Positions 5,546-56,867 of a stretch of DNA of 64,000 nucleotides are shown here, piece by piece. Source of the stretch: Candidatus Staskawiczbacteria bacterium. Lineage in GTDB: Bacteria > Patescibacteriota > Minisyncoccia > Minisyncoccales > Staskawiczbacteraceae. The notes beneath the pieces are model-generated. The model did not search any database. It was not told where the DNA came from and saw only the letters and a program-made list of their open reading frames with translations. The stretch covers positions 11,569 to 75,568 of the forward strand of contig CAIYRH010000015.1 in NCBI GenBank assembly GCA_903928565.1, in the 5' to 3' direction. Every line of letters starts with the position of its first letter. The stretch's first letter is position 1. The translations under genes and the position numbers were made by a program.

Positions 5546-5556
5546 AGTTGTGCAAT

Positions 5557-6333
5557 ATGTTAAAAAAAGAAATTGGGTGGCTTTTAAAAGAGAAATATTT
5601 TGGGGTCGCTAACAAAAAATTCCAAAAAGATGTAGAGCGGTTAAAGGCGGGTGAGCCGGTTGACTATGTAATTGGTTTTACAGAGTTTTTGGGTTGTAAA
5701 ATTGATTTATCTAAAAAACCATTAATTCCGCGCCCAGAAACTGAATTCTGGGTTGGTGAGGTTATTAAAAAAAATGGCGATATTTTTTACGGCCGTCAAA
5801 AATGTGGCCCTTTGGTTTTGGACATGTTTGCAGGGTCTGGGTGCATTGGAATTGCTTTGTTAAAAAATATTAAAAATATAGAATGCGACTTTGCGGATAA
5901 AGATAAAAAATGTTTAGAGCAAATAAAAATAAATTTAAAGTTAAACGGAGTTAAAGGCAAAGTAATTTGCTCAAATGTTTTTAGTGAAGTCGTGGGGAAG
6001 TACGATATAATTTTTTCTAACCCGCCGTATATTCCAACAACAAGAAAAAATAAAATTCAAAAAACGGTTATAAAGTTTGAACCCAAAATTGCGTTGTTTG
6101 GCGGCGCTAGTGGAATGTTTTTTATAAATAAATTTTTGAAGGACGCAAAAAAATACTTGAAGAAACCCGTCTTCGCCAAGGCTTCGGCGAGGCGAGGGGG
6201 AATAATTTTTATGGAGTTCTCGCCGGAGCAGAAAGGTGCAATAGGAAAATTAGTAAAAAAATATAAATATTCTAAATGTGAATTTTTTAAGGATCAATTT
6301 AACCGCTGGCGGTGGATAAAAATATTTGCTTGA
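5557..6333 (+). CDS. prmC: release factor glutamine N5-methyltransferase PrmC/HemK
   Basis: SAM-binding motif [10 protein letters not shown] and catalytic NPPY (FSNPPYIP). The ATG at 5557 is preferred over the TTG at 5548. Confidence 0.88.
6166..6200 (+). repeat. GC-rich mini-element, in-frame inside prmC (encodes [12 protein letters not shown])
   Basis: Core TTCGCCAAGGCTTCGGCGAGGCGAGG. It is homologous to 18523-18566 and 56726-56768. It is absent at this position from E. coli PrmC as I recall that sequence. Confidence 0.8.
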
Positions 6334-6819: not shown

Positions 6820-8061
6820 TTAGCCAACAGCAACGTTGCCCGGAAGTCCTGCTTCAAGGCTAACTCGCGCTAACATATATTGAAGTGGATTGTGCACCGC
6901 TAGAATGTTGAGAGCTTCGGTTATAGCACGATGTGTATATATGCAGTTAATGACGGGCGCACTAATGACGCATGAAAGAGCTTCACGATATTCGGGGTCC
7001 ACGTTGAGGTCAAAGAGAACCACCGTATCGGGGACCTCGTGCGTTAATGTAATCAATTTGAGCATTGCGTCGCTTGTTGTGCCATTCATTGAATCACGTA
7101 CAATTATCGATGGAATGCTTAATTGCGAGCGCTTATCGATAGCTTCAATAAGTTTGTCTCCAATGCCTGTTCCCCGCGGGTCGGTCCACAGAATAACGCG
7201 TTGGCGTGGCAGGGCGAAGTGACTGGTGAGCTCGGCAACCAGTTGGTACTTGCGAGTCACGTCGGAGAGGTCGCCACCGTCGCGGTAGACCTGTTTGTCA
7301 ATGTAGGCTCCGTCTTCAACAACGCGCCACGAGTCATTGTCAACCACGTCGGCTAGCAACAGTTTTCCAAAGGGGTCGGTGCCAAATTCCACCTTCATGT
7401 CCACTAGCCGGCGGTTTTCCAACTGCCATGCTTTTTCAAGGACAAAGAAAGTTTGGCGCGCCAAACGAGCCATTTCATTCATGAGCGCGTCTTCTCGCGC
7501 AACAGTAAAGACTTCCGCTTCGTTTAGCACCAAGAACGGTTCTTGCCCGGCAAGTGGTTTTGCGGGGTTATACAGTCGGATTAAATGAGCGGCGGCATCG
7601 TGAATCATTAGCGGGTCATCGCATGGAAGTTCGTGTTCCTTCCACCGCCGGCCGCTCGTTTTCAAGAAAAATTCAACCACCAGTTGTGGGAAAATGTGTC
7701 CTTTGGAAAGGTGCGGAGCGCGTTTGAGAGAAGAGCCATGGGCTTCGCGACGGGTGACGACTTCGTAGGGCAACATGTTGCACTTGGGGGCGATAAACCA
7801 GTCATCGCCACCTTGCATTTCGAACGCAACAGGAATTTGACAGGCTTTCAGAAACCTGAAAACATTGCAGGTAGTACGTGTGGCAATTCGGCCTTTGTCG
7901 GGAATGACGTCGTGTTTGGCGCCGTCGCCAGCAGTGATGTCGTCTTTTGCAATCAAGATTGCCCAGTCGGGGTTTCGCAGATGTTGGTGAACCCACTTGG
8001 TTTTACCTTGTGCTAAGACTTCTCCCAGCAGCTCCATTGGTATTAACGTTGTTGTTGGCAT
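6820..8061 (-). CDS. PAICS-like protein: SAICAR-synthase domain fused to a degenerate PurE/AIR-carboxylase-like domain
   Basis: 413 aa. GKTKWVH...KDDITAGDGAKHD...IAPKCNMLPYEVVTRREAHGSSLKR...LVDMKVEFG...LADVVDNDSWR...DKQVYRD matches SAICAR synthase. The C-terminal ~120 aa aligns positionally to PurE but lacks the GSxSD and SAH(R/K) motifs. About 50-60% GC. Confidence 0.75.
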   Translation of the reverse strand: MPTTTLIPMELLGEVLAQGKTKWVHQHLRNPDWAILIAKDDITAGDGAKHDVIPDKGRIATRTTCNVFRFLKACQIPVAFEMQGGDDWFIAPKCNMLPYEVVTRREAHGSSLKRAPHLSKGHIFPQLVVEFFLKTSGRRWKEHELPCDDPLMIHDAAAHLIRLYNPAKPLAGQEPFLVLNEAEVFTVAREDALMNEMARLARQTFFVLEKAWQLENRRLVDMKVEFGTDPFGKLLLADVVDNDSWRVVEDGAYIDKQVYRDGGDLSDVTRKYQLVAELTSHFALPRQRVILWTDPRGTGIGDKLIEAIDKRSQLSIPSIIVRDSMNGTTSDAMLKLITLTHEVPDTVVLFDLNVDPEYREALSCVISAPVINCIYTHRAITEALNILAVHNPLQYMLARVSLEAGLPGNVAVG

Positions 8062-8965: not shown

Positions 8966-10501
8966 ATGAAAATACCAAAATTTTTAAAACGAAAAAGAAA
9001 TCTCTGGATTATCGCAATTTTAGTGGTTGTAATTATAATTGGATTTTTTATTTTTAGTCCTAAAAATAAAAACGCCTCTATGCAAATCGGTTTTGCCACA
9101 AAACAAAATTTGCAAGAAACAGTTTTGTCTACCGGGCAGGTTTTAAGCTCTACAGACCTTGGTTTAAGTTTTCAGGGCAGTGGAGTTGTGCGAAATATTT
9201 ATGTAAAAGAAGGAGACACTGTAAAACAGGGGAAAGTTTTGGCTTCGCTTGATGCCGCTTCAGCCTATGCTACTTTAACATCTGCTCGGGGTTCTTTGGC
9301 TCAGGCACGGGCAAATTACGACAAGCTTTTGGCAGGTGCTTCTCAGCCAAGTTTACAAGTTGCCCAAGACACTGTTAATTCGGCGCAACAAGATGTAACC
9401 AACGCCTACAACGGAGCAATAAATACTTTAAATACTGGTTACACAGCAATTTATAATTCCGACTTTTTGGCTCTATCGGTGCAAGATGCTTATTTCCCAA
9501 CATCTGATAGAGTTGGTCTTGAAGTTAGAAACGCTAAAATTGAACTAGACGGCATTGTGCCAAACATAAAAAATTCATTAGATGCGGTTAAGGCAAATAT
9601 TACAAATCAAGGTGTTGATTCGCTGATATCTCATGAAATTATAGCCCTAAATACTACATATAACGATGTTAATGTCATTCGAGTGCAATGTGACGCAGAC
9701 ACATATAAAGATAGAATTCCCGATTCACAAAGAACGCTTTTAGACGCGCAAAAAACATCAATAAGTTCGGCGTTATTAGGAGTTACGTCGTTGCAACAAA
9801 ATTTAGCGTCTTTAAAATTGGCTTTACAACGGGCGCAAGACCAATTAAGTGTGACAACAGCTCCTCCAACTCAGGCCGACTTAAATTTGGCTCAGGGGCA
9901 GGTGCTTTCGGCACAAGGGCAGGTTGATGCTGCACAAGCGGTTTTAAATAATGCTATTATTATAGCTCCCGCAAACGGAACAATTACACAAGTTGACATT
10001 AAAGTTGGTGAATTGGCTACACCTTCTAAAGAAGCAATTATTCTGCAAAATGTTGGTAGCTTGCATGCAGAAGCCGACGTTAGTGAAGCCAACATTGCAA
10101 CTTTGCAAGTTGGTCAGCCGATAGATTACACCTTTGATGCGCTTGGGCCAGACCAACATTTTACCGGTAAAGTGTTAACTATAAACCCAGCTTCTACAGT
10201 AATTTCGGGAGTAGTTGATTATTTGGTGAAAGGAAGTTTAGACAACATTCCAAACTTAAAACCGGGCATGACAGCAAACATGACAATTTTGGTGGCGCAA
10301 AAAAATGATGTGTTGGCGGTGCCATCTACAGCAGTAATAAATAAGAATAATAAACAATATGTGCGCGTAATTGATAATGCCAAAAGTAAAACTTACCACG
10401 AAGTTCAAGTGCAAACCGGTTTGCAGGCTGACGGGGGATTAGTTGAAATTACTTCGGGGCTAAGCAACGGGCAAGAAATTATTATTTACATGAAGTCTTA
10501 A
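8966..10501 (+). CDS. HlyD/MacA-type periplasmic adaptor (membrane fusion) protein
   Basis: 511 aa with an N-terminal TM segment, a long coiled-coil and a beta-barrel C-terminus (APANGTITQVDIKVGE). It lies upstream of the ABC genes. Confidence 0.8.
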   Translation: MKIPKFLKRKRNLWIIAILVVVIIIGFFIFSPKNKNASMQIGFATKQNLQETVLSTGQVLSSTDLGLSFQGSGVVRNIYVKEGDTVKQGKVLASLDAASAYATLTSARGSLAQARANYDKLLAGASQPSLQVAQDTVNSAQQDVTNAYNGAINTLNTGYTAIYNSDFLALSVQDAYFPTSDRVGLEVRNAKIELDGIVPNIKNSLDAVKANITNQGVDSLISHEIIALNTTYNDVNVIRVQCDADTYKDRIPDSQRTLLDAQKTSISSALLGVTSLQQNLASLKLALQRAQDQLSVTTAPPTQADLNLAQGQVLSAQGQVDAAQAVLNNAIIIAPANGTITQVDIKVGELATPSKEAIILQNVGSLHAEADVSEANIATLQVGQPIDYTFDALGPDQHFTGKVLTINPASTVISGVVDYLVKGSLDNIPNLKPGMTANMTILVAQKNDVLAVPSTAVINKNNKQYVRVIDNAKSKTYHEVQVQTGLQADGGLVEITSGLSNGQEIIIYMKS

Positions 10502-10502
10502 A

Positions 10503-11219
10503 ATGACATTAATTGAAGTAGAAAATTTAAAAAAAGATTATGTAAATGACGAAGTTGTCACGCGCGTTTTGCACGATGTCAGTTTTAAAATAAACGAAGG
10601 CGAGTTTGTGGCAATTATGGGGCCATCGGGTTCGGGCAAATCTACATTAATGCACATTTTAAGTTTTTTAGACAGGTCAACTTCGGGTGTTTATAAATTT
10701 GAAGGCAAAGATACTAAAAATTTTGATGATGATTATTTAGCAAAACTAAGAAACGAAAGAGTGGGTTTTGTTTTTCAATCTTTCAATTTATTAGCGCGTA
10801 CAACCGTTTTAGATAATGTGCGCCTACCCCTGGTTTACAGTAAAATAAAAGATACAGATGAGTTGGCAGAAAAAGCGTTGGCTTCTGTGGGGTTATCGCA
10901 CAGGTTAAATTATCTTACAAACCAAATTTCTGGCGGAGAAAAACAACGCGTGGCAATTGCCAGGGCATTGGTAAATAACCCAGCGGTAATTTTTGCAGAC
11001 GAGCCAACAGGAAATCTCGATTCAAAATCTGGAAACACGGTAATGTTTATTTTGCAAAAATTGAATAACGCAGGCCACACAATCATTTTAGTTACTCATG
11101 AAACTGACACCGCCAACCATGCTAAAAGAATTATTAGAATTAAAGACGGCAATATTATTTCCGACGAGAAAGTTGCAAAGCGTACCGTTGCCAGTGCCGA
11201 AAAAGATTTGGTAAAATAA
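10503..11219 (+). CDS. ABC transporter ATP-binding protein (MacB/LolD-type)
   Basis: Walker [10 protein letters not shown], signature ISGGEKQR, Walker [12 protein letters not shown]. Confidence 0.93.
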
Positions 11220-14836: not shown

Positions 14837-17308
14837 ATGTCTATAATTATACCGGGATTAATTTTAGTTTTTTTATTGATTGTTTTGGCATTTATAATTG
14901 CTTTAAAATCCGAAAGCAATCAAAGAGACTCGGTTTTTGGTGGCCTTGAAATGGTTTTGTTTTTGGTTATGATGCCCCAACACACTCCGCAGAAAGAAGG
15001 GGAAATTAAAAAAGAAGAGAAGAATTTAATTTCGCAAATGGAACAAGTTTTTGCTAATTTTCTTTATTTAAAGAAAACAAAAATGTTCCAAACGCCACCT
15101 TGTTGCTCTTTTGAAATTGCCTCGCAAATTGGAGGTTCAGACATTTCATTTTATGTTTCTGTGCCAAAATATTTAGAATCTGTTTTTGAAAAATATGTGC
15201 AAGGCGTTTACCCAAATGCTGTAATTGATAAAGTCCCGCAAGATTACACTATTTTTGAACCTCAGGGAGCCACTGCCGCAGCATATTTGCAAATTGCGGA
15301 AAGTTCGCTTTTTCCAATTAGCACCTACCAACTTTTAGAAACAGATCCATTGGCATTAGTAACAAATAATTTAAGCAAAATTGCTGTAAATGAAGGTGGG
15401 GCAGTTCAGGTAATTATAAGGCCGTTATCTAGAATGAATTTAAGAAAAAAAGGGGAAAAGGCGTTAAAGAAAATAAGAGAAGGAAAGGCGGTTAGAGATG
15501 CTGCCATTTATGCATTTCAAGGCCCAATTACGGAGGCAATTGAAGACGCAGTTAATACTTTATTTGGTAAAAGTTTAAAGAAAAAGGAGGAAGAAGCCGG
15601 CTTACGAGAAAGAGAACAAACTTTCGACCAAAAAGGCTACGACGCCATTCAAAGTAAAATTCAAAAACAACCGTTTGAAACAGACATTAGGGTTGTGGCT
15701 TATGCACAATCGGAGGGGCGCGCCGAAGATATTTTAAACCATTTAACTTCTGCCTTTAGCCAATTTTCAATGTCTGCAATAAACAGTTTAGATGTTAAAA
15801 AAGTTTATGGCAGGGAATTGCAAAAATTAATTTACGACTATTCTTTTAGACAATTTAATAGAAAACAATCTAGCATTTTAAATTTAGAAGAATTGGCAAG
15901 CGTTTACCATTTCCCAACGCAGTATATTGAAACACCCTACATTAAATCCACAAAATCTACAACCTATGCTCCGCCTACAAATTTGCCAAACAAAGGCGAG
16001 CTTTGCGTTGGAAAAGTTTTGTTTAGAAACGAAGACAATAGCGTTTATTTTGCAGAAAAAGCAGACAGAAGAAGGCATTTTTATATTATAGGACAAACCG
16101 GCGTTGGAAAATCTGGTTTTATGGAAGGCATGATTGCTCAAGACATGGCTAATGGCGAAGGAATTGCCGTTATTGACCCGCACGGCGAACTAGTTGACCA
16201 CGTTTTAGCAATGGTGCCTAAAAATAGAATAGATGACGTTGTTATTTTCGAGCCGTTTGATATTGAAAGGCCATGCGGTTTGAATATGTTAGAATATGAT
16301 TCTCCCGAACAAAAAGATTTTGCTGTACAAGAAATGATTGCAATTTTTATGAAATTATTTCCACCAGAAATTATTGGCCCAATGTTTGAACACTACATGA
16401 GAAATGCAATGTTGGCTTTAATGGCAGACAAAGACAATCCTGGCACGCTTGTTGAAATTCCAAAAATGTTTACAGACCCATCGTTTTTGGCACAACGCTT
16501 GGCAAAGGTTTCTGACCCCGTTGTAAGGTCTTTTTGGACAAAAGAATGGGCACAAACAACCGGTTCTACAAGGTCTGACATGTTGGGTTATGTTGTTTCA
16601 AAACTTGGCCGATTTATTGAGAATGAAATGATGAGAAATATAATAGGGCAGTCGCACTCTGGGTTTGATTTGGCGGAAGTTATGGACGGTAAGAAAATAT
16701 TTTTAGCCAATTTGTCTAAGGGTTTAACCGGCGAGGTAAATAGCTCTTTGTTGGGTTTAATTTTGGTTTCAAAAATTCAAATGGCTGCTATGAAGCGCGC
16801 AAGAGTTGAAGAAGAAAAACGAACAGATTTTTATTTATACATTGACGAATTCCAAAACTTTACTACAGATTCCATTGCCACAATTTTGTCTGAAGCCAGA
16901 AAATATAAATTAAATCTAATTATGGCGCACCAGTATATGCCACAATTAAAACAAGAAATTAGAGATGCCGTTTTAGGAAACGTTGGAACAATTGGTGCAT
17001 TTAGAATTGGTGCCGAAGATGCAGAAAATTTGGAAAAACAATTTGAACCCGGTTTTTCAAGGTTTGATTTGGTGAACTTAGACAACTTTACAATGATAAT
17101 TAAAATGATGATAAATAATAAAATTTCTACACCATTTAAGATGAATACTTTGCCCCCGCCAAAAGGAAAAAAAGAAATTATAGACCCAATTAAAAAAATA
17201 TCTAAATTAAAATATTCGCGAGCGCGAGCAATTGTTGAAGAAGAAATTTCCAAAAGATCGTTCGTTGATTTGCCCCCAATTGCTCCACCACCCGTCCCAA
17301 CCCGTTAA
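14837..17308 (+). CDS. TraD/VirD4/HerA-like ATPase (type IV secretion coupling-protein-like)
   Basis: 823 aa with an N-terminal TM segment, Walker A GQTGVGKSG, Walker B FYLYIDEFQNF, and ARKYKLNLIMAHQY. Confidence 0.75.
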   Translation: MSIIIPGLILVFLLIVLAFIIALKSESNQRDSVFGGLEMVLFLVMMPQHTPQKEGEIKKEEKNLISQMEQVFANFLYLKKTKMFQTPPCCSFEIASQIGGSDISFYVSVPKYLESVFEKYVQGVYPNAVIDKVPQDYTIFEPQGATAAAYLQIAESSLFPISTYQLLETDPLALVTNNLSKIAVNEGGAVQVIIRPLSRMNLRKKGEKALKKIREGKAVRDAAIYAFQGPITEAIEDAVNTLFGKSLKKKEEEAGLREREQTFDQKGYDAIQSKIQKQPFETDIRVVAYAQSEGRAEDILNHLTSAFSQFSMSAINSLDVKKVYGRELQKLIYDYSFRQFNRKQSSILNLEELASVYHFPTQYIETPYIKSTKSTTYAPPTNLPNKGELCVGKVLFRNEDNSVYFAEKADRRRHFYIIGQTGVGKSGFMEGMIAQDMANGEGIAVIDPHGELVDHVLAMVPKNRIDDVVIFEPFDIERPCGLNMLEYDSPEQKDFAVQEMIAIFMKLFPPEIIGPMFEHYMRNAMLALMADKDNPGTLVEIPKMFTDPSFLAQRLAKVSDPVVRSFWTKEWAQTTGSTRSDMLGYVVSKLGRFIENEMMRNIIGQSHSGFDLAEVMDGKKIFLANLSKGLTGEVNSSLLGLILVSKIQMAAMKRARVEEEKRTDFYLYIDEFQNFTTDSIATILSEARKYKLNLIMAHQYMPQLKQEIRDAVLGNVGTIGAFRIGAEDAENLEKQFEPGFSRFDLVNLDNFTMIIKMMINNKISTPFKMNTLPPPKGKKEIIDPIKKISKLKYSRARAIVEEEISKRSFVDLPPIAPPPVPTR

Positions 17309-18014: not shown

Positions 18015-18725
18015 TTATTCAATTATACGCCATTCTACGTCTTCTTTTTTACCAACATACTCAAGCCATTCGCCGTCTTTTATAACAAACCATTTCTTTT
18101 TCGTTTCCGAAAAAATCATTGGATCGCCCTTATAAAATGGTTTTTTAACAATTTCTTTTGGCTTTAAGCGGTCTAATTCAAGCCACTTTTTAAACACTGT
18201 TTCAATGGCATAATCTAGTTTTCTTGTTTTTGCCCATTGCGAAACTGTAGTTATGGCTTGCTTGGCTTTTTCAACAGAACCGGCTAACTCCATTAATTGT
18301 TTGGCGGGTTTGGTAAACCTAGAATAGATTATCTTTTTCTTTTTAGCATTATTTTTCAATTCTTGCAACCCTACGCCTTTCGTTTCAAAGTAGTGGGCAA
18401 TTATGTTTTGAATGGCGGTTTCTTCCTTTAATTCTTCAAAATCCTTAATTTTTTGTTTTTTTATGTATTCTTCAATTTTTTTGGCATTTTTTTCGCCAAT
18501 TCCCAAATCCATTATAGCTTTGAGGCCCTTTCCTCGGCTCGCCGAAGCCTTGGCGGAGGCGGCTTCTTTATAAACCTCGGCAACATCAACTTGCATTGCA
18601 TCTAAAATGCCAATGGCTTTTTTGTAGGCTTTTATTTTGAAATTTAAAGCTTTGTCACCCTTAATTTCAAGAAGCTTTATAATTTCGCCAAATATTTGAG
18701 ATATTTCTTGGTTTGCCATTACCAT
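18015..18725 (-). CDS. helix-hairpin-helix protein resembling the PolX N-terminal (8-kDa/HhH) region, without a polymerase domain
   Basis: NQEISQIFGEIIKLLEIKGD..FKIKAYKKA and LGIGEKNAKKIEEYI resemble the PolX N-terminus. The C-terminal half is unknown. Confidence 0.55.
   Translation of the reverse strand: MVMANQEISQIFGEIIKLLEIKGDKALNFKIKAYKKAIGILDAMQVDVAEVYKEAASAKASASRGKGLKAIMDLGIGEKNAKKIEEYIKKQKIKDFEELKEETAIQNIIAHYFETKGVGLQELKNNAKKKKIIYSRFTKPAKQLMELAGSVEKAKQAITTVSQWAKTRKLDYAIETVFKKWLELDRLKPKEIVKKPFYKGDPMIFSETKKKWFVIKDGEWLEYVGKKEDVEWRIIE
18523..18566 (-). repeat. GC-rich mini-element, in-frame inside the HhH gene (encodes AASAKASASRGKG)
   Basis: Sense-strand core TCCGCCAAGGCTTCGGCGAGCCGAGG. 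It is in the same frame as the prmC and femX copies. Confidence 0.8.
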
Positions 18726-19706: not shown

Positions 19707-20300
19707 ATGGAAAAAAGACATAAAATTTTTGTCGCAATAAATTTACCTGGCGATATTAAAAAACAATTATTTCTGTACTCTCAAAAATTTTTAGATTTAC
19801 CTGCGCGGTGGGTGCCAAAAGATAATTTGCACATTACGTTAGAATTTCTTGGGGCCTTAACAGACATGGAAATTGGTGAAATTTGTGTGGCCGTTAAAGA
19901 AGTCGCAGAAAGGCACGGTAGTTTTACAATTGAATTACAAAAGGTTTTATATGGCCCCCCACTTCGCCAAGGCTCCGCGGGGCAGGCACAAACAATACCT
20001 AAAATGGTTTGGGTAGAGGGTAAAAAATCTAAAGAGTTGGCAATGATAAGGCAAGACTTAGAAAATACTTTAACAGAAAAAATTTCATTTATACCAGAAA
20101 GCAGGGCATTTGCTCCACACATTACTTTAGCCCGCATTAATGCAATGGAGTTTAGACAAATTGAGCCAGAAGAAGTGCCCGAAATAAATGAAGTTATCGA
20201 TTTAGCTTTTACAGTTGAATCAATTGAGGTTATGGAATCGGAAATGAGAAAAGGCGGGCCAGTTTATACGATTTTAGAATCACATAATTTAAATAATTAA
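19707..20300 (+). CDS. thpR: RNA 2',3'-cyclic phosphodiesterase (2H family, ThpR/LigT)
   Basis: Two HxT motifs are present (HITLEFLG and HITLARI). Confidence 0.85.
   Translation: MEKRHKIFVAINLPGDIKKQLFLYSQKFLDLPARWVPKDNLHITLEFLGALTDMEIGEICVAVKEVAERHGSFTIELQKVLYGPPLRQGSAGQAQTIPKMVWVEGKKSKELAMIRQDLENTLTEKISFIPESRAFAPHITLARINAMEFRQIEPEEVPEINEVIDLAFTVESIEVMESEMRKGGPVYTILESHNLNN
19953..19990 (+). repeat. GC-rich mini-element variant inside thpR, read in a different frame (encodes PLRQGSAGQAQ)
   Basis: CTTCGCCAAGGCTCCGCGGGGCAGGC compared with CTTCGCCAAGGCTTCGGCGAGGCGAGG in prmC. Confidence 0.7.
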
Positions 20301-20302
20301 AC

Positions 20303-21616
20303 ATGAAGATACATTTAATTGGAATTGGAGGAATTGGGGTTAGCGCACTGGCGCAATATTATTTATCGAAAGGTTATCAAGTAACCGGTTCTGATTTGGT
20401 TAAGTCTGAAATTACAGATTTTTTAAAGAAAAAAGGCGTAAAAATATTTATAGGTAATACCCGCGAAAATATAAAACAAGATTTAGACTTTGTTGTTTAC
20501 AGCCCCGCAGTAAAATCAAATAATCCCGAACTTCTACAAGCTACTCACTACAAACTACCCACTAAATCATATCCGGAAGCTTTGGGTGAGATAACAAAAG
20601 AATATTACACAATTGCAGTTTCTGGCGCTCACGGAAAAAGCACAACAACCGCAATGATTGCTTTACTTTTAGCAAAAGCCAAACTAGACCCAACGGTTAT
20701 TGTTGGCACTCGCGTTAAAGAATTTGGAAATTCAAATTTTAGAGCCGGGAAAAGTAAATTTTTAGTAATTGAAGCCTGCGAATATGACTCTTCGTTTTTA
20801 AAATATTTTCCAAACATAACTGTTGTTACAAACGTAGATAAAGAGCATTTAGATTTTTTTAAAACGCTTGCCAATGTTAAAAAGGCGTTTAAAAGTTTTA
20901 TTTTAAAAACAGCAAACGACGGTTTTTTAGTTTTTAACCAAGACAATAAATTTATTCCCATAATAAAAAAATCGAAATTTAAAGTTTTACCATTTTCAAT
21001 TAGACAAAAAGAAGTTGCAAAATTAAAGAAAATTTTGTATGTACCCGGCAAACATAACATTTACAATGCTTTAGGCGCGCTAACCGTGGCTAGAATTTTA
21101 GGAATTCCCGATGCAATTTCTTACAAGTCCCTGCAGGAATTTAGGGGTACATGGAGAAGGTTTGAATTAAAAAAGGGGAGTGCAAAAGGTAAAGCAATAA
21201 CTGTTATTTCCGATTATGCCCACCACCCCAACGAAATTGCCGCAACCTTAATGGCCACAAGAGAAAAATACCTGCCTGCCGGCAGGCAGGTCCAAAATAA
21301 ACGTATTTGGTGTGTTTTTCAACCACATCAACACCAACGTACTCACTATTTATTTAATGATTTTGTCAAAATGTTTCAAAAAATGCCAATTGATAAAATA
21401 ATTATCACGGACATTTATGATGTTGCCGGCAGAGAAACCAAAACAATAAATGCAGAAGTAAGCTCCGAAAAGCTAGTAAAGAAAATAAAATTAAACAATG
21501 TGGAATATGTTTCTTTGCCTGAAACAGAAAAATATATCAAAACTAACATAAAAAGTGGAGATATTTTACTGATAATGGGCGCCGGTGATATTTATAAGCT
21601 GTTTGATAAGTTTTAA
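20303..21616 (+). CDS. murC: UDP-N-acetylmuramate--L-alanine ligase
   Basis: IGIGGIGVSALA, GAHGKSTTTAM, DYAHHPNEI, FQPH. Confidence 0.93.
   Translation: MKIHLIGIGGIGVSALAQYYLSKGYQVTGSDLVKSEITDFLKKKGVKIFIGNTRENIKQDLDFVVYSPAVKSNNPELLQATHYKLPTKSYPEALGEITKEYYTIAVSGAHGKSTTTAMIALLLAKAKLDPTVIVGTRVKEFGNSNFRAGKSKFLVIEACEYDSSFLKYFPNITVVTNVDKEHLDFFKTLANVKKAFKSFILKTANDGFLVFNQDNKFIPIIKKSKFKVLPFSIRQKEVAKLKKILYVPGKHNIYNALGALTVARILGIPDAISYKSLQEFRGTWRRFELKKGSAKGKAITVISDYAHHPNEIAATLMATREKYLPAGRQVQNKRIWCVFQPHQHQRTHYLFNDFVKMFQKMPIDKIIITDIYDVAGRETKTINAEVSSEKLVKKIKLNNVEYVSLPETEKYIKTNIKSGDILLIMGAGDIYKLFDKF
21270..21291. repeat. 22-bp perfect GC-rich palindrome ACCTGCCTGCCGGCAGGCAGGT inside murC (encodes LPAGRQV)
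   Basis: Read directly from the sequence. It is in-frame. It corresponds to ~7 extra residues relative to E. coli MurC as I recall that sequence. Confidence 0.85.
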
Positions 21617-21656: not shown

Positions 21657-21925
21657 TACATTGAAAATTATAAAACCGTTGATTTAGGTCCTTTAGTTCC
21701 CAAGACTAAAGGGTGGGCCTGATTCGTCCGCCTTCGCATTAAGATTCGGCGAGACAAGGTGGTCTGTGCGTTAGTGCAGGCTCGGCTTCCTCCGTAATCA
21801 TAGGATAACTGCTAAATCAAGAAATTGATGAGTCAGTAAGCACCAGACACCATTCGGCATCTGGTTAACAAGGGTGGTACCACGAATCCTTCGATCCTAC
21901 TCAGGATCATGACTTTTCGTCCCTG
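21657..21925 (+). promoter_or_regulatory. putative T-box leader RNA (promoter TTGACG at 21624, -10 near 21647-21654)
   Basis: AACAAGGGTGGTACCACG (21867-21884) closely matches the T-box consensus GGGUGGUACCGCG. A stem ACCAGA/TCTGGT precedes it. tyrS lies downstream. I could not identify the specifier codon or terminator. Confidence 0.45.
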
Positions 21926-22024
21926 TCCTCCGATCAACATTGGAGCATAGAGATGAGAAGTTTTTTTGTTTACAAAAGTTAGTAAGCGACTTCTCACAAA
22001 GTCCTTTAACAATATTTAACGCCA

Positions 22025-22239
22025 TGGAAACTAATAAAAACGAAAAATTACCGAAGGATAATCCCAATCAGAAGTGTTTTAAATGCCGAAAAGTGCTTCC
22101 AACTTGGAGGTTAGACTTCGACCGTTTGGGGACAAGGGCTTTGGTGCTTAGGCACAATTTTTGCCCGGCGGTTGAGCCAAATGGCGAAATAGTGTTTTTG
22201 TGCACCGAATGCAAAATGCTTAGCATGGGGAGAACTTAG
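22025..22239 (+). CDS. small zinc-ribbon protein (71 aa; CxxC...CxxC)
   Basis: KCFKCRK...LCTECK. The stop codon lies in the loop of a strong terminator hairpin. GC is moderately elevated. Confidence 0.5.
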
Positions 22240-22258
22240 GTTCTCCCCCTTTTTATTT
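22227..22258 (+). terminator. rho-independent terminator
   Basis: GGGGAGAAC-ttag-GTTCTCCCC followed by CTTTTTATTTT. Confidence 0.85.
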
Positions 22259-22303
22259 TCCGTAAAAATTGCTATTATTTAATAAGGTTTTAAGAATAAA
22301 TAT

Positions 22304-41430: not shown

Positions 41431-42060
41431 ATGAAAACACGATATTTATTGATTGCGCTTCTGTGCGCATTGACGCTTGGCTGCCAAAAGGCGCCGAAAA
41501 CAGAAGATGAAGCGTTTGGTGATTTTGCCAAGAGCGTTCTTGCGGCTGGGAAGGCAAAAGATTCTGGCACATTTATTAACAAGTTGAGTATGGCAAGTGT
41601 TGCCGACCTTAACGCTTTGGTTGAAGTGCTGAAAAAAGCAAATCTTCAGATTAGCCTTAATGAAAACGAGGAAAAGCCCACGGACGCCGAGATTCGGAAA
41701 GAAGCCGAAGCAAATGTGCGATTATTTATGGATTCATATGCCGACGTTTTTGAGGCCGATGGTATGCTTTCTTGCGTTGTAACTGCGCAAGATACAGAGA
41801 TAAAGGGAGCAAATGTTTATTCCATGATCATTTGGGCTAAACACAAAGACGGAAAATTTCGTGGGATCAAAATTGACAGCGCTTGGAAGAGAGATGACGG
41901 CACAATTAAGGTTATCACCTGGACACAGCTTGATGGCTACGCAGCAAGCAAGCATGCCTCCAAGAAGAAGGCTATTCTGGAGTGCGACACAGTTGAAGCC
42001 TGTGACTATCCAAACATGATAACGTATGAATATGTTTTCAGTAAATATGACATGAACTAG
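41431..42060 (+). CDS. lipoprotein (209 aa), cassette F cargo
   Basis: MKTRYLLIALLCALTLGC is a signal peptide with a lipobox. GC-rich. No family was recognised. Confidence 0.65.
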   Translation: MKTRYLLIALLCALTLGCQKAPKTEDEAFGDFAKSVLAAGKAKDSGTFINKLSMASVADLNALVEVLKKANLQISLNENEEKPTDAEIRKEAEANVRLFMDSYADVFEADGMLSCVVTAQDTEIKGANVYSMIIWAKHKDGKFRGIKIDSAWKRDDGTIKVITWTQLDGYAASKHASKKKAILECDTVEACDYPNMITYEYVFSKYDMN

Positions 42061-42098
42061 GCGAGCAATTGCTACTTGGTATGAACCCATTCTCACCC

Positions 42099-42123
42099 GA
42101 GAATCCTTAAGGGTTCTTTTTTT
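42099..42123 (+). terminator. cassette F terminator
   Basis: GAATCC-ttaa-GGGTTC followed by T7. Confidence 0.75.
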
Positions 42124-42139
42124 GTACGCCTAAATTTTT

Positions 42140-42151
42140 ATTGTGCGACAA
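42140..42151 (+). repeat. Box A 12-mer ATTGTGCGACAA (copy 3)
   Basis: Exact match. It is followed by the hairpin CATAACCGAC-caaatta-GTCGGTTATG and GGTGCTT, which ends 2 nt before the recombinase stop codon. Confidence 0.85.
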
Positions 42152-42197
42152 ATCTAACATTGCATAACCGACCAAATTAGTCGGTTATGGTGCTTAA

Positions 42198-43169
42198 TTA
42201 CGTCTTATCTGGGTCGGAATGAAACTGATGATGAATGTCACGCAAGCGTTTGTTTGTTACGTGCGTGTAAATTTGAGTGGTGGCGATATTTGAATGGCCA
42301 AGAAATTCTTGAATGCTTCGAAGGTCAACACCTTGGTTCATTAAATCTGTTGCATATGAATGTCTAAGTGTGTGAGGTGTGGTAAAAATTGGCACGCCTG
42401 AAAGTAATGCATATTTTTTAACCATGCGTTCAATAGATCTTGGCGTAAGCCGGGCATTTGTATCATCTTTTTTATCGCGAAAATTTATAAACAAAGCTTT
42501 TTGGTTGGCATGCGAAACATCATTTCTTATTTTAAGATAATCTTTAATAAAATTAATGGCACGTTCAGAAAAATAAACAACGCGCGGTTTTCCGCCCTTT
42601 CCAATAACTCCAAGTTCCATGTCCCTTTTTTCTTTCAAACTATTAAACTGTTCAAGGTTGAGTGAAACCAATTCGGCAATGCGCAAACCAGTTGAGAAAA
42701 AGGATTCTAAAATAGCCCTGTCGCGGGTGGTTATGTTGTCTTTAGGCTCTATAGAGGCCAAAAGCTTACTAACTTGGTCCAGGGTAAGGAATTTAACGCT
42801 TTTTAGCGCTCTATCGGCCTTTGCAAGGGCTATTTTGTCTGGGGGCAGTGAAAGTACGTCTTTTGCCACAAAGTAGCCTAAAAAAGCTCTTAGAGCGATT
42901 AAATAGTAGTTTTGGGTGCCCTTAGATAGCAATTTACCGGTGGCTGGGCTTGGGGTGCGGGAAAGGTATAAACGATAGGTCCAAATATGGTCTGCGGTTA
43001 ATTGATGGGGGAGCAGAAGGTCATTTTTGCTCTCGGCGAGCCAATAAAAAAACTTAATTAAATAATTTTTATAATTCTCTTGAGTATTTTTTCTTAAACC
43101 TTTTTCAACTTCACAAAAGTCTAAAAAATCTTGTAGATGTTCTTTAATTGGTTTTGATGATTTTTGCAT
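42198..43169 (-). CDS. tyrosine site-specific recombinase (XerC/XerD-like integrase family)
   Basis: SAM-like N-terminal domain. Catalytic residues in RIAEL, HTLRHSYAT, LGHSNIATTQIYTHV. Confidence 0.88.
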   Translation of the reverse strand: MQKSSKPIKEHLQDFLDFCEVEKGLRKNTQENYKNYLIKFFYWLAESKNDLLLPHQLTADHIWTYRLYLSRTPSPATGKLLSKGTQNYYLIALRAFLGYFVAKDVLSLPPDKIALAKADRALKSVKFLTLDQVSKLLASIEPKDNITTRDRAILESFFSTGLRIAELVSLNLEQFNSLKEKRDMELGVIGKGGKPRVVYFSERAINFIKDYLKIRNDVSHANQKALFINFRDKKDDTNARLTPRSIERMVKKYALLSGVPIFTTPHTLRHSYATDLMNQGVDLRSIQEFLGHSNIATTQIYTHVTNKRLRDIHHQFHSDPDKT

Positions 43170-43436
43170 AGTTTTATTTAGGCCGCCTTATATAACGTCT
43201 CTTTACCTACATTTTGCGACATACTATATACCTCTATAATAGTCTCCCCTTGGGCTCAGGTCAAGACCTAATAATCCACAAAAGACGACCCAGGCATCAA
43301 TTTTGCTGGCGCATGCGTGCATAATAATTATTTACATCACTATTCCCCACACTTTTAGATATAATTTTAAAAAAATAATTTTTTATTTTTCTTAAATATT
43401 TTTCTAAATTATTTTTTTTCTTTCACTAGCACAAAT

Positions 43437-43988
43437 TTAACTGACTCTCCCCCATTTTGATGGATCTTCAATAAACTTGATATAAGCCTCGCGCAGAAGC
43501 TTGGCATCGTCTAAAGCGTTGTGTTGGTTATATTTAGAACGGTCAATGCCAAGTCTTTTAAGAAGTTCTGCATTATTTTCTGAATAATAAGCTGTGGGGT
43601 CTATTCCGTGTGCAAATAACATTGTTGCAAAATCAACGGAAACTAATTGAAAAGGGTTATCAATAGTGTCATCAACAGACATTAATAATTTTTGCCAGTA
43701 CATTGCATCATCTTGGTTTATGTAACCAACAGCGTAAGGCTTTGTATTACCAACAAATTCACTAATTTTTTTAACAGCTTCTTTTGCAGTAATGCGATTG
43801 CCTGTTAGAAAGGGCATCACGTGACTTTTAACCCAATCGCTGGCCTCCCCACTATATTCTAACTCTACATATAATTCTTCACCGGTAAATTTTACCAAGC
43901 CAATTGAAATTAGCTCGGCCTTGTTTGGGTCTAAACTAGTAAACTCAGTGTCAAAAAATATTATATTATCTGAAAATGGTTTTATCAT
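43437..43988 (-). CDS. DEDDh 3'-5' exonuclease
   Basis: FFDTEFTSLD (ExoI), YINQDDAM (ExoII-like), HNALDDAK (ExoIII). The ATG at 43988 is preferred over the GTG at 44003. Confidence 0.75.
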   Translation of the reverse strand: MIKPFSDNIIFFDTEFTSLDPNKAELISIGLVKFTGEELYVELEYSGEASDWVKSHVMPFLTGNRITAKEAVKKISEFVGNTKPYAVGYINQDDAMYWQKLLMSVDDTIDNPFQLVSVDFATMLFAHGIDPTAYYSENNAELLKRLGIDRSKYNQHNALDDAKLLREAYIKFIEDPSKWGRVS

Positions 43989-44041
43989 AATTGATGCCTG
44001 CACTGCTTGCGCTGAGCTTGCCGAAGAAAGCCATAGCCGAA

Positions 44042-55709: not shown

Positions 55710-55791
55710 GGAAACAAACTTTTTGAAGGCCCAGGTCGACTTGCCCGTAGAGGCAAAGCGAGTTCCTGCTTGCCGAAAAAAGTTTGTTTCC
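55710..55791. repeat. 82-nt element with 15/16-bp terminal inverted repeats and a GC-rich core
   Basis: GGAAACAAACTTTTTG ... AAAAAAGTTTGTTTCC. The core contains CTTGCC/GGCAAAG/CTTGCCGAA, which allows alternative pairings. Confidence 0.8.
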
Positions 55792-55802: not shown

Positions 55803-56867
55803 TCATAGTCCGCGCCTAGCTTTTCTAAACCGCTCAATTATATAATTGAGCCAGTATTTTTTAGAAACAACAAAATCTTGCGTTTTAATATACTCTTGTT
55901 TGTAGCCCCCAAAACCCATTTTAAATAGCGTTGGGCCCGCCCACGGATGCGCAGGAAATTTGTCCGGGTCTGTAAAACCCCAAAAATCATAAATTTTACA
56001 ATGCCTATTTTTTGCCTCTTTAATTGCTTCCCATTGTAATAAATAAGGAATAGATAGTTTGGAAAATTTTCCAACAGACGCAGCTTGGTGATAAAAGGCT
56101 ATTCCAGACCAAAAAATAATGATTGCTCCTGCCACAACTTCGCCCTTATATTTTCCAAACATAAAAACAACTTCCTTATTTTTGTTAAACGTTGTAAATT
56201 CGTTGTTTATAAATTCGTCTGAAAATGGAACAAAACCCTGCCTTTTAGATACTTCTTTATTTAATTTCTGATAAATTTTAATGTCTTCTGGGTTTGTGCT
56301 TTTTTCAATAACTACATCTGGGTTTTCTGAAACTTTTTTAATTAAATAGCGCGTTGTTTTGCGCATATTGCTTAAAAGTTCGGCCTCGGGTAAATAAACG
56401 TCTAGCTTCCAGGTTGATTCGTACGACGAAGAGTGCATGGGGGCTTCTCTAAACCCCAAGTCTAAAAATAAATTTCGGTTTTCTAAATTATCAAAGAAAA
56501 GCGGTGAAACCCTTATAAAACTGGCGTTTTCTTTTTGTGCAATGTGATTTAATTGAACCAGAATTATTTCAAAAATTTCTTTTTTATCTTTAATTGGCAA
56601 GCTTTCAATTACTACTGGACCATGTGGAATAAATAAAAAAGTGCCCCTTTTTGCAGAAATTTTGTTAACAAAAACAACGGCAATTAATTTATTAGCGCTG
56701 TAGACGCCAAGTCTCCAAATTTTACCTTGGCTCGCCGAAGCTTTAGCGGAAGTGGCGCCAAGCGCACAAACTTCTGCCCAATCCCATGATTGCAAAAAAG
56801 TCTTTTCAGAGCGCTCTGAAAGAAAATCTTCCCATTCTTCCCTATTTGTGATTTCTCTAATTTCCAT
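55803..56867 (-). CDS. FemAB/FemX-family peptidoglycan peptide-bridge aminoacyltransferase
   Basis: 354 aa. FLQSWDW, FIPHGPV, FYHQAAS, YDFWG. Confidence 0.8.
   Translation of the reverse strand: MEIREITNREEWEDFLSERSEKTFLQSWDWAEVCALGATSAKASASQGKIWRLGVYSANKLIAVVFVNKISAKRGTFLFIPHGPVVIESLPIKDKKEIFEIILVQLNHIAQKENASFIRVSPLFFDNLENRNLFLDLGFREAPMHSSSYESTWKLDVYLPEAELLSNMRKTTRYLIKKVSENPDVVIEKSTNPEDIKIYQKLNKEVSKRQGFVPFSDEFINNEFTTFNKNKEVVFMFGKYKGEVVAGAIIIFWSGIAFYHQAASVGKFSKLSIPYLLQWEAIKEAKNRHCKIYDFWGFTDPDKFPAHPWAGPTLFKMGFGGYKQEYIKTQDFVVSKKYWLNYIIERFRKARRGL
56726..56768 (-). repeat. GC-rich mini-element, in-frame inside femX (encodes GATSAKASASQG)
   Basis: Sense-strand core TCCGCTAAAGCTTCGGCGAGCCAAGG. 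The paralog at 60681-61658 lacks ~9 residues at this position. Confidence 0.8.

Follow-up and report, generated by a model that had tools for sequence, protein, structure and literature searches.

Introduction

The Rickettsia palindromic elements (RPEs) of Ogata et al. are reportedly selfish palindromic repeats of a reduced, AT-rich genome. They are said to lie in frame in housekeeping genes, in surface segments of the encoded proteins. RPEs are also present in non-coding RNA, and RPE-1 measures roughly 100-150 bp. To our knowledge, they are confined to Rickettsia. Here, we describe a family of short GC-rich hairpins in a stretch of DNA from Candidatus Staskawiczbacteria bacterium, a member of the Patescibacteria or Candidate Phyla Radiation (CPR). 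The stretch, called the window below, comprises 64,000 nt (contig CAIYRH010000015.1, positions 11,569 to 75,568). A sequence-only reading of it had proposed an RPE-like family of GC-rich palindromes inserted in frame into housekeeping genes. Our analysis supports this proposal in substance.

Repetitive extragenic palindromic sequences (REPs) are palindromes of 20-40 nt, which in several species lie in frame inside genes. RPE-4 and RPE-6 of Rickettsia have been equated with CGTC REPs (PMC3733652). The Y1 enzymes bind a folded single strand and read the irregularities of its stem. The REP-associated tyrosine transposases (RAYTs) read, in addition, a GTAG tag (PMC8266576). In yeast mitochondria, GC clusters are short GC-rich palindromes of an AT-rich genome, with in-frame insertions in var1, and are regarded as mobile (PMC8811140).

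The sequence-only reading knew of no description for CPR-type genomes or for elements this short. Its first part holds: in the searchable literature, no paper describes the element, or combines RAYT or REP with CPR or Patescibacteria. The second part does not, because in-frame REPs of 20-40 bp, including RPE-4 and RPE-6, have been published (PMC3733652).

The element and its copies in the window

The element has a 27-nt core, N-CCGCC-T(T/C/A)-CGCCAAGGCTTC-GGCGAG-N', with a weak CAAG(C) tail behind it. Its copies are 69% GC in a window of ~36% G+C. Three cores quoted by the sequence-only reading are exactly present at 6172-6197 (+), 18532-18557 (-) and 56725-56750 (-). A search of the window with the 26-mer, tolerating up to 3 mismatches, returned these three sites only (expected 0.00). 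Likewise, the 9-mer TTCGGCGAG occurs four times, as had been counted; 0.22 occurrences are expected, and 0 of 100 shuffles reached 4. The fourth occurrence, at 21745, lies inside a T-box leader 5' of tyrS.

We built a covariance model (R1) from public copies and ran it on the window, where GC-rich islands were also scanned. R1 finds four copies that are clear and one or two more that have decayed. Their scores extend from 49 to ~10 bits, which points to a range of ages. All are singletons, and none is paired as an inverted dimer. The prmC copy occupies 6164-6199 (+) in the open reading frame (ORF) 5548-6333 (47.2 bits, E 9.5e-9). More precisely, it shows N = C at 6166, CCGTC at 6167-6171, the loop at 6172-6185, GGCGAG at 6186-6191, N' = G at 6192 and the tail CGAGGGG. 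A copy of 49.3 bits lies at 18530-18565 (-) in a helix-hairpin-helix gene (HhH; HHH_8, PolX N-terminal-like; ORF 18015-18725). It has N = G and N' = C and encodes AASAKASASRG. In femX, a FemAB-family gene (ORF 55803-56867), the copy at 56723-56758 (-) reaches 33.6 bits (E 1.2e-5). Its 5' arm has decayed to GCCACT, and the encoded peptide is TSAKASASQG.

The fourth clear copy, at 21725-21761 (+), is non-coding and falls in the Stem I region of the tyrS T-box leader (29.6 bits, E 9.7e-5). Its stem is intact (N = T, N' = A), with the loop altered to TTCGCATTAAGATTC. Next comes a diverged, marginal copy (11.3 bits) at 19956-19989 (+) in the ligT/2',5'-RNA-ligase gene (ORF 19707-20300). This LigT copy keeps the loop, has its stem changed to CCCCAC/GCGGGG and uses another reading frame (PLRQGSAGQ). 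Finally, a doubtful AT-decayed copy (CCGCCTAC...GGCGAGC) is found at 15968-16008 (+) in the VirD4/TraG-like ORF 14837-17308 (9.8 bits, E 3.1). Pfam assigns the hosts of the four coding copies other than this last one to PrmC-type methyltransferase, HHH_8, FemAB and LigT_PEase.

The PrmC, HhH and FemX copies are all sense to the host ORF and share one frame (FemX: SAKASASQG), as the sequence-only reading had observed. As a rule this fails, since antisense copies, other frames and the LigT copy occur; what is left is a strong bias. Two related cores that it had listed, at 44016-44026 and 55768-55778, turn out to be bare 11-mers. The covariance model detects neither of them, even at E<=10.

The T-box leader, putative until now, matches Rfam RF00230 at 21670-21927 (+) with 28.7 bits (E 1.9e-4). 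This is under the gathering score of 93, yet the AGGGUGGUACCACG box is present and tyrS follows downstream. The low score is probably due to disruption of Stem I by the inserted hairpin. A small ORF (21940-22239) without a Pfam match lies between leader and tyrS (window 21670-22303). At the equivalent place, the related contig L121 has a small Cys-rich ORF. No Rfam 15 family matches the window at its gathering score. Around the T-box copy, nothing other than the T-box appears at E<=1, and eight non-CPR loci of the element give nothing at E<=0.01.

Insertions relative to related genomes

Judged by sequence comparison with relatives, each of the five best window copies (PrmC, HhH, FemX, LigT and T-box leader) is a lineage-specific insertion. 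The alignment of orthologues had been proposed as a check on the original idea, and it bears the idea out for PrmC, HhH and FemX. In HhH, the 11 residues are absent from most of 120 orthologues (222-224 aa). At the DNA level, exactly 33 nt are missing in the nearest relative, L121 (86% identical protein, 738-kb contig). A second relative, L122, carries an AT-decayed copy at the identical position (17 of 33 nt identical), with changes mostly from G/C to A/T.

The 10-aa insert of PrmC is absent from ~110 of 120 orthologues, those of the L121 and L122 genomes included. Seven of the 120 have (R/K)(R/K)P(A/V/S)(S/F)AKASAR at the insert position. In one PrmC orthologue (P0255), the element lies two codons off and in another frame (NPTSPRLRGA). 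This shift in position and frame indicates an independent hit of the same PrmC loop. The 9-aa insert of FemX is missing in all ~75 representative homologues. LigT has 24 nt more in the window than in L121 and L122, and the orthologous leader of L121 is without the element. The reverse case was also found: a copy lies in the Mur ligase gene (murC) of L121, and there is none at that place in the window. The candidate at 15968-16008 is not significant alone, and it corresponds to no gap in the L121 and L122 orthologues.

No target-site duplication is present at the filled and empty junctions of HhH, LigT, murC and the T-box leader. Nothing was consistent across the junctions, and a target-site motif or duplication was rejected. 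Every intragenic copy examined adds whole codons (21, 24, 27, 30 or 33 nt) and keeps the host frame free of stops.

We placed the PrmC insert in an AlphaFold2 model of the window protein (mean pLDDT, the model's per-residue confidence, 91.7). In this model, it falls in a coil (202-215) between a helix (188-200) and a strand (216-220). The 10-residue block is the part of lowest confidence (pLDDT 70). The insert would thus sit in a surface coil, predicted at low confidence, in line with the loop location suggested earlier.

A hairpin with a covarying closing pair

To define the unit, we scanned public data, one genome per species, for CGCYAARGCTTCGGCGAG, leaving the upstream CCGCC unconstrained. 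The scan gave at least 120 loci. Among the 123 matches listed, 74 share the upstream CCGCC with at most one mismatch. The sequence 5' of N is random (~1.9 bits of entropy per column). No other pair of columns in the alignment has as much mutual information as N and N' (0.99 bit). They are Watson-Crick in 60 of the 74 copies: C-G in 30, T-A in 15, G-C in 10 and A-T in 5.

The hairpin therefore comprises a 6-bp GC stem, a conserved bulged A, a conserved 14-nt loop T(T/C/A)CGCCAAGGCTTC and a free closing pair N-N'. Covariation was tested on 66 curated members with the structure N-C-CGCC[14-nt loop]GGCG-(A)-G-N'. In these, 96.3% of cells are paired, with closing pairs CG 23, UA 15, GC 10 and AU 5. 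The covariation score is 0.222 versus 0.096 in shuffles, and 0 of 500 shuffles reach the observed value. When the register is slid, pairing drops to 29-40%. An independent metagenome sample, with N and N' left free, gives Watson-Crick pairs in 100 of 109 copies (CG 42, TA 37, GC 18, AT 3). In the four strong copies of the window, N-N' is likewise Watson-Crick, with three pair types. A second covarying pair, at the loop apex, changes from C-G to T-A and spans only two bases. Because N-N' forms Watson-Crick pairs of all four kinds, we conclude that the element is a constrained hairpin.

The palindrome had been drawn earlier around the inner CGCC. The comparative data favour instead the outer CCGCC, pairing with GGCG(A)G and closed by N-N'. 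The inner CGCC/GGCG stem, the GCCTT-CGCC-AAGGC stem and the long stem of minimum free energy were considered and rejected; none accounts for the N-N' covariation. The inner CGCC is preceded by T, C or A, without a compensating change. All six frames of the GC-rich consensus are free of stop codons. In the AT-shifted variant, which is common in CPR, each strand contains one.

Distribution across bacteria

Further copies were found in the window, in its relatives and in public genomes, as the proposal of a dispersed family predicted. The family is not specific to CPR. Loci with conserved flanks come from at least seven phyla: at least 28 from Acidobacteriota, at least 16 from Patescibacteria/CPR (many classes), at least 8 from Alphaproteobacteria and at least 6 from Bacteroidota. 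Planctomycetota and Verrucomicrobiota contribute at least 2 each, and the remaining loci belong to Cyanobacteriota and others. In Acidobacteriota and Bradyrhizobium, the element is multi-copy. There it is often one half of an inverted dimer similar to REPINs (REP doublets forming hairpins), in which the partner unit carries GTAG. Inverted pairs also occur at one alphaproteobacterial locus.

We classified 41 unique copies from low-GC loci. Eleven are clearly intragenic, 23 are intergenic or undecidable, and 7 are borderline. Of the intragenic copies, nine are sense, with 7 of these in the AKASA frame, and the other two antisense. The first sample (at least 120 loci) has a similar mix and includes copies adjoining tRNA genes and start codons. 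As an example of a conserved non-coding position, L003 and L197 have an intergenic copy 57 nt 3' of an EF-G-like ORF. In L197, this copy is 60 nt 5' of an EF-Tu-like ORF.

A plasmid or phage vector was considered and rejected, because the plasmid and phage collections held nothing convincing. Among 72,556 plasmids and 50,697 phages, Blast found nothing beyond weak matches to high-GC sequence. IMG/VR yielded 8 matches, of which only one high-GC virus (L129, L130) has the full element, in the AASAKASASQG frame.

Re-used insertion sites and a second palindrome

The Mur ligase gene of the window (ORF 20303-21616, Pfam Mur_ligase) has an insert of another family at 21269-21295, with the perfect palindrome CCTGCCTGCCGGCAGGCAGG. 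The insertion is 21 nt long, in frame, encodes LPAGRQV and is absent in L121 and L122. LPAGRQ also occupies the HhH insertion site in two orthologues (P0065 and P0072). The CCTGCCTGCCGGCAGGCAGG palindrome represents another palindromic family that behaves in this way.

Similar inserts were observed at other places. PrmC has a second site, MEFD[GSxxSPQVxx]QKK, aligned to ~6215 of the window, with a GC-rich-looking insert of 8 aa in ~9 of 120 orthologues. Its carriers are P0244, P0258, P0260, P0294, P0300, P0321, P0340, P0345 and P0353, with the L121 genome included; the window PrmC is without it. At one position of fpg, L124 has a perfect 28-nt palindrome, TCCTGCCTCGCCGCTAGGCGAGGCAGGA (L124:9570-9597), and L095 an AKASA-family element (L095:2370-2405). 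At that position, L125 has an AT-rich stretch that equals the L124 one in length. The HhH gene of L122 carries a second in-frame GC-rich insert of 24 nt, AKAEDGQG (GCCAAAGCAGAGGACGGACAGGGA, L122:~9900-9930), which is present neither in the window nor in L121. The repeated colonisation of the same loops could reflect few tolerant sites or preferred targets.

Neighbour-joining (NJ) trees with Fitch counting give at least 12 state changes for HhH and at least 10 for PrmC. This suggests many gains and losses of inserts. The insert-bearing HhH alleles have the adjacent GLKA-IM motif in common. Because the trees of these ~230-aa proteins are noisy and the HhH alleles share that motif, the number of insertion events is uncertain.

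How the copies may have spread

We consider it probable, with due reserve, that the copies represent a non-autonomous mobile hairpin of REP type. They are inserted, and in places exactly absent, at many unrelated sites. In a gene-dense, AT-rich CPR genome, a large share of them lies in ORFs, where extra residues are tolerated. By analogy with REP/RAYT and IS200/IS605, the most likely mover would be a hairpin-recognising HUH/Y1 enzyme acting in trans, which would excise and insert the folded single strand. The scarless presence and absence, the lack of target duplication, the conserved bulge and the constrained closing pair fit the chemistry of such enzymes. After insertion, AT-biased mutation may decay the copies. 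The AKASA sense frame may prevail through selection on the peptide, a small polar one being the best tolerated. No host function would be needed.

We searched for a candidate enzyme. L095, a Staskawiczbacteria contig retrieved for its element content, encodes a Y1_Tnp protein (PF01797, 49.5 bits). Its gene (L095:2792-3532) lies between two inverted copies of the element, located in fpg and holA respectively. More than 2,000 proteins are homologous to this Y1_Tnp protein, most of them from Patescibacteria, and one is named RayT by its source. This Y1_Tnp/RAYT gene is single-copy and conserved in Staskawiczbacteria and other CPR, in the neighbourhood fpg-RAYT-holA-rpsT. Given ascertainment and copy density, the arrangement in L095 is within chance. 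No cognate REPtron was found, for the RAYT genes of L095 and L124-L127 are not flanked by the element. A recurrent neighbour gene was also sought as a possible mobiliser, and only housekeeping families recur at element loci. RAYT as the demonstrated mobiliser was therefore rejected: its flanks are another hairpin, and the second sample of 120 loci returned the same orthologous locus only.

The CPR RAYT loci examined (L095:2760-3580; L124, L125, L126 and L127, about 9940-10800) have a hairpin of their own. It is present in three copies, namely just upstream, just downstream and in frame within the ORF (codons ~68-77). Its stems co-vary between lineages (gatcgaagTCGGGcttcgatc in L095 versus ttgtgagcTCGGGgctcacaa in L124).

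Several points weigh against a mobile hairpin of REP type. Mobility is something we infer from comparative presence and absence. AG dinucleotides stand at the two junctions, and hairpin-stimulated slippage between them could also give the exact absence in L121. The hairpin that flanks the five CPR RAYT genes (L095, L124-L127) is a different, lineage-specific one with a TCGG(G/A) loop. The 64-kb window has no Y1/HUH gene and no TCGG(G/A)-loop hairpin either. In 120 plus 120 element-bearing loci, RAYT appears at one orthologous place (L095, L168), which is not above chance. The link to RAYT is circumstantial because the flanks differ, the window lacks both gene and hairpin, and the 120 further loci show no enrichment. 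In addition, a GTAG or CGTC tag adjoining the palindrome was not found, the 5' flank being random. Finally, the loop is conserved, with near-identical sequence in at least seven phyla, whereas REPs are usually lineage-specific.

Spread might also occur without a dedicated transposase, through gene conversion or template switching, hairpin-stimulated slippage, or recombination of alleles between lineages. We regard this as unlikely, although several observations favour it. The same sites are repeatedly occupied, the HhH insert alleles share GLKA-IM, the inserts are scattered on the NJ trees of the host proteins, and no cognate transposase was found. Moreover, yeast mitochondrial GC clusters are recombination hotspots (PMC8811140). 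However, conversion is unable to seed naive sites such as LigT, FemX and the T-box stem, which lack homologous flanks. The scatter on the trees also loses force, as noisy trees leave the event number uncertain. About as doubtful, in our view, is a broader idea. The element could belong to a distinct pan-bacterial class of mini-mobile hairpins that is no client of RAYT and has the conserved 14-nt loop and the free closing pair as its marks. Widely shared or horizontally transferred machinery would then hold its sequence almost constant over at least seven phyla, and would insert and remove copies seamlessly and repeatedly at the same codons of the same proteins.

A host-selected RNA or DNA motif is a somewhat weaker candidate still. 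It could stabilise or process mRNA, bind a protein, or signal replication or recombination, and its conservation would then mean function and not selfishness. Loop and stem are conserved over at least seven phyla, and the closing-pair covariation was replicated. Many copies directly follow a gene or tRNA, or lie between fusA and tuf. In HhH, the window copy is near the consensus, and the copy of L122 at the same place has decayed. Against such a role, the copies occur in unrelated host genes, in both orientations, in several frames and even in a riboswitch stem. Close relatives are without the copy at every site tested, and many copies are visibly decaying. There is no Rfam family for the element, and its stem shows no strand asymmetry of G-U versus A-C.

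It is very improbable that the copies are untranslated intervening sequences, removed from the RNA or bypassed like the byp clusters of Magnusiomyces mitochondria. A likeness to mitochondrial GC clusters does exist, in that GC-rich palindromes sit in an AT-rich genome, and some of those clusters are bypassed (PMC8811140). However, the orthologous copies evolve as protein sequence. Since every intragenic copy examined has whole codons and no stop, simple read-through suffices and bypass is unnecessary. Ancestral or convergent low-complexity Ala/Ser linkers can be practically dismissed: the peptides are Ala/Ser/Lys-rich and lie in loops, but the same 26-36 nt of DNA recur in unrelated genes and in non-coding RNA, and the orthologue alignments refute the idea.

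Other features of the window

The cumulative GC skew has its maximum at ~42000-44000, where gene orientation turns from + to -. The replication terminus probably lies here. With the doubtful copy at 15968 included, five of six copies of the element are forward on the leading strand, a tendency inseparable from the sense-strand bias. A SAICAR-synthetase-like ORF of 413 aa at 6820-8061 (-) lies in a stretch of ~47% G+C, compared with 36% for the window. This gene may have been acquired horizontally.

Implications

Even gene-dense CPR genomes of ~1 Mb carry active or recently active palindromic repeats. These live largely inside genes and structured RNAs, because CPR genomes have almost no intergenic space. 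The repeats generate lineage-specific protein loops, which affects annotation, orthologue alignment and structure prediction of CPR proteins. Copies could serve as strain-level markers. The near identity from Patescibacteria to Acidobacteriota, without GTAG or CGTC, is unexpected for REPs and raises a testable question about the recogniser. The CPR RAYT, with its own hairpin upstream, downstream and within its ORF, offers a compact system for studying hairpin recognition. If a pan-bacterial class of mobile hairpins does exist, essential proteins of ultra-small bacteria would have loops that vary reversibly and by lineage.

Relation to described repeat families

The likeness to the REP/REPIN-RAYT system is extensive. 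The element is a GC-rich imperfect palindrome of 20-40 nt that forms a stem-loop. It also appears to be dispersed in multiple copies, with 5-6 copies in 64 kb, extra copies in relatives and clusters at Acidobacteriota loci. Its stem has a conserved irregularity, the bulged A, and no target duplication accompanies it. Inverted dimers occur in Acidobacteriota and Bradyrhizobium (the window copies being single), in-frame intragenic copies are found in both systems (occasionally in REPs, PMC3733652), and related CPR genomes have a RAYT-family gene. On the other hand, intragenic copies of the element make up at least a quarter of those from low-GC (CPR-like) loci, and a different hairpin flanks the known CPR RAYT. 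CGTC appears only as the CCGCC-to-CCGTC variant of a few copies, prmC included, and GTAG only in the dimer partners of Acidobacteriota. We do not file the element as a REP member because two defining features of REPs, the tag and the cognate REPtron, both fail.

With IS200/IS605-derived palindrome-associated transposable elements (PATEs) and miniature inverted-repeat transposable elements (MITEs), it shares a non-autonomous, hairpin-dependent nature and the lack of coding capacity. These elements measure 100-400 bp and have two ends (terminal inverted repeats or subterminal hairpins), whereas here a single hairpin is the whole unit. MITEs make target duplications, and none is seen at the junctions of the element.

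Yeast mitochondrial GC clusters are similar as polymorphic in-frame insertions in a protein gene that are otherwise mostly intergenic. Unlike the element, they are organellar and eukaryotic. Their AG/TAG terminal repeats are taken as target duplications, of which the element has none, and some of them (byp) are bypassed in translation, whereas the element is read through.

RPEs are alike in their in-frame insertion in protein genes, their absence from orthologues and their presence in non-coding RNA. They differ in size, since the element has 27-36 nt versus ~100-150 bp for RPE-1, and the element spans phyla. No similarity in sequence to RPEs is known. The supplement of PMC3733652 lists REP-encoded peptides, and those of the element do not appear there; size and peptides set it apart from RPE. 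What is new is a REP/RPE-like hairpin that lacks the canonical tag, shows unusual conservation over phyla and, in low-GC genomes, is intragenic in at least a quarter of its copies.

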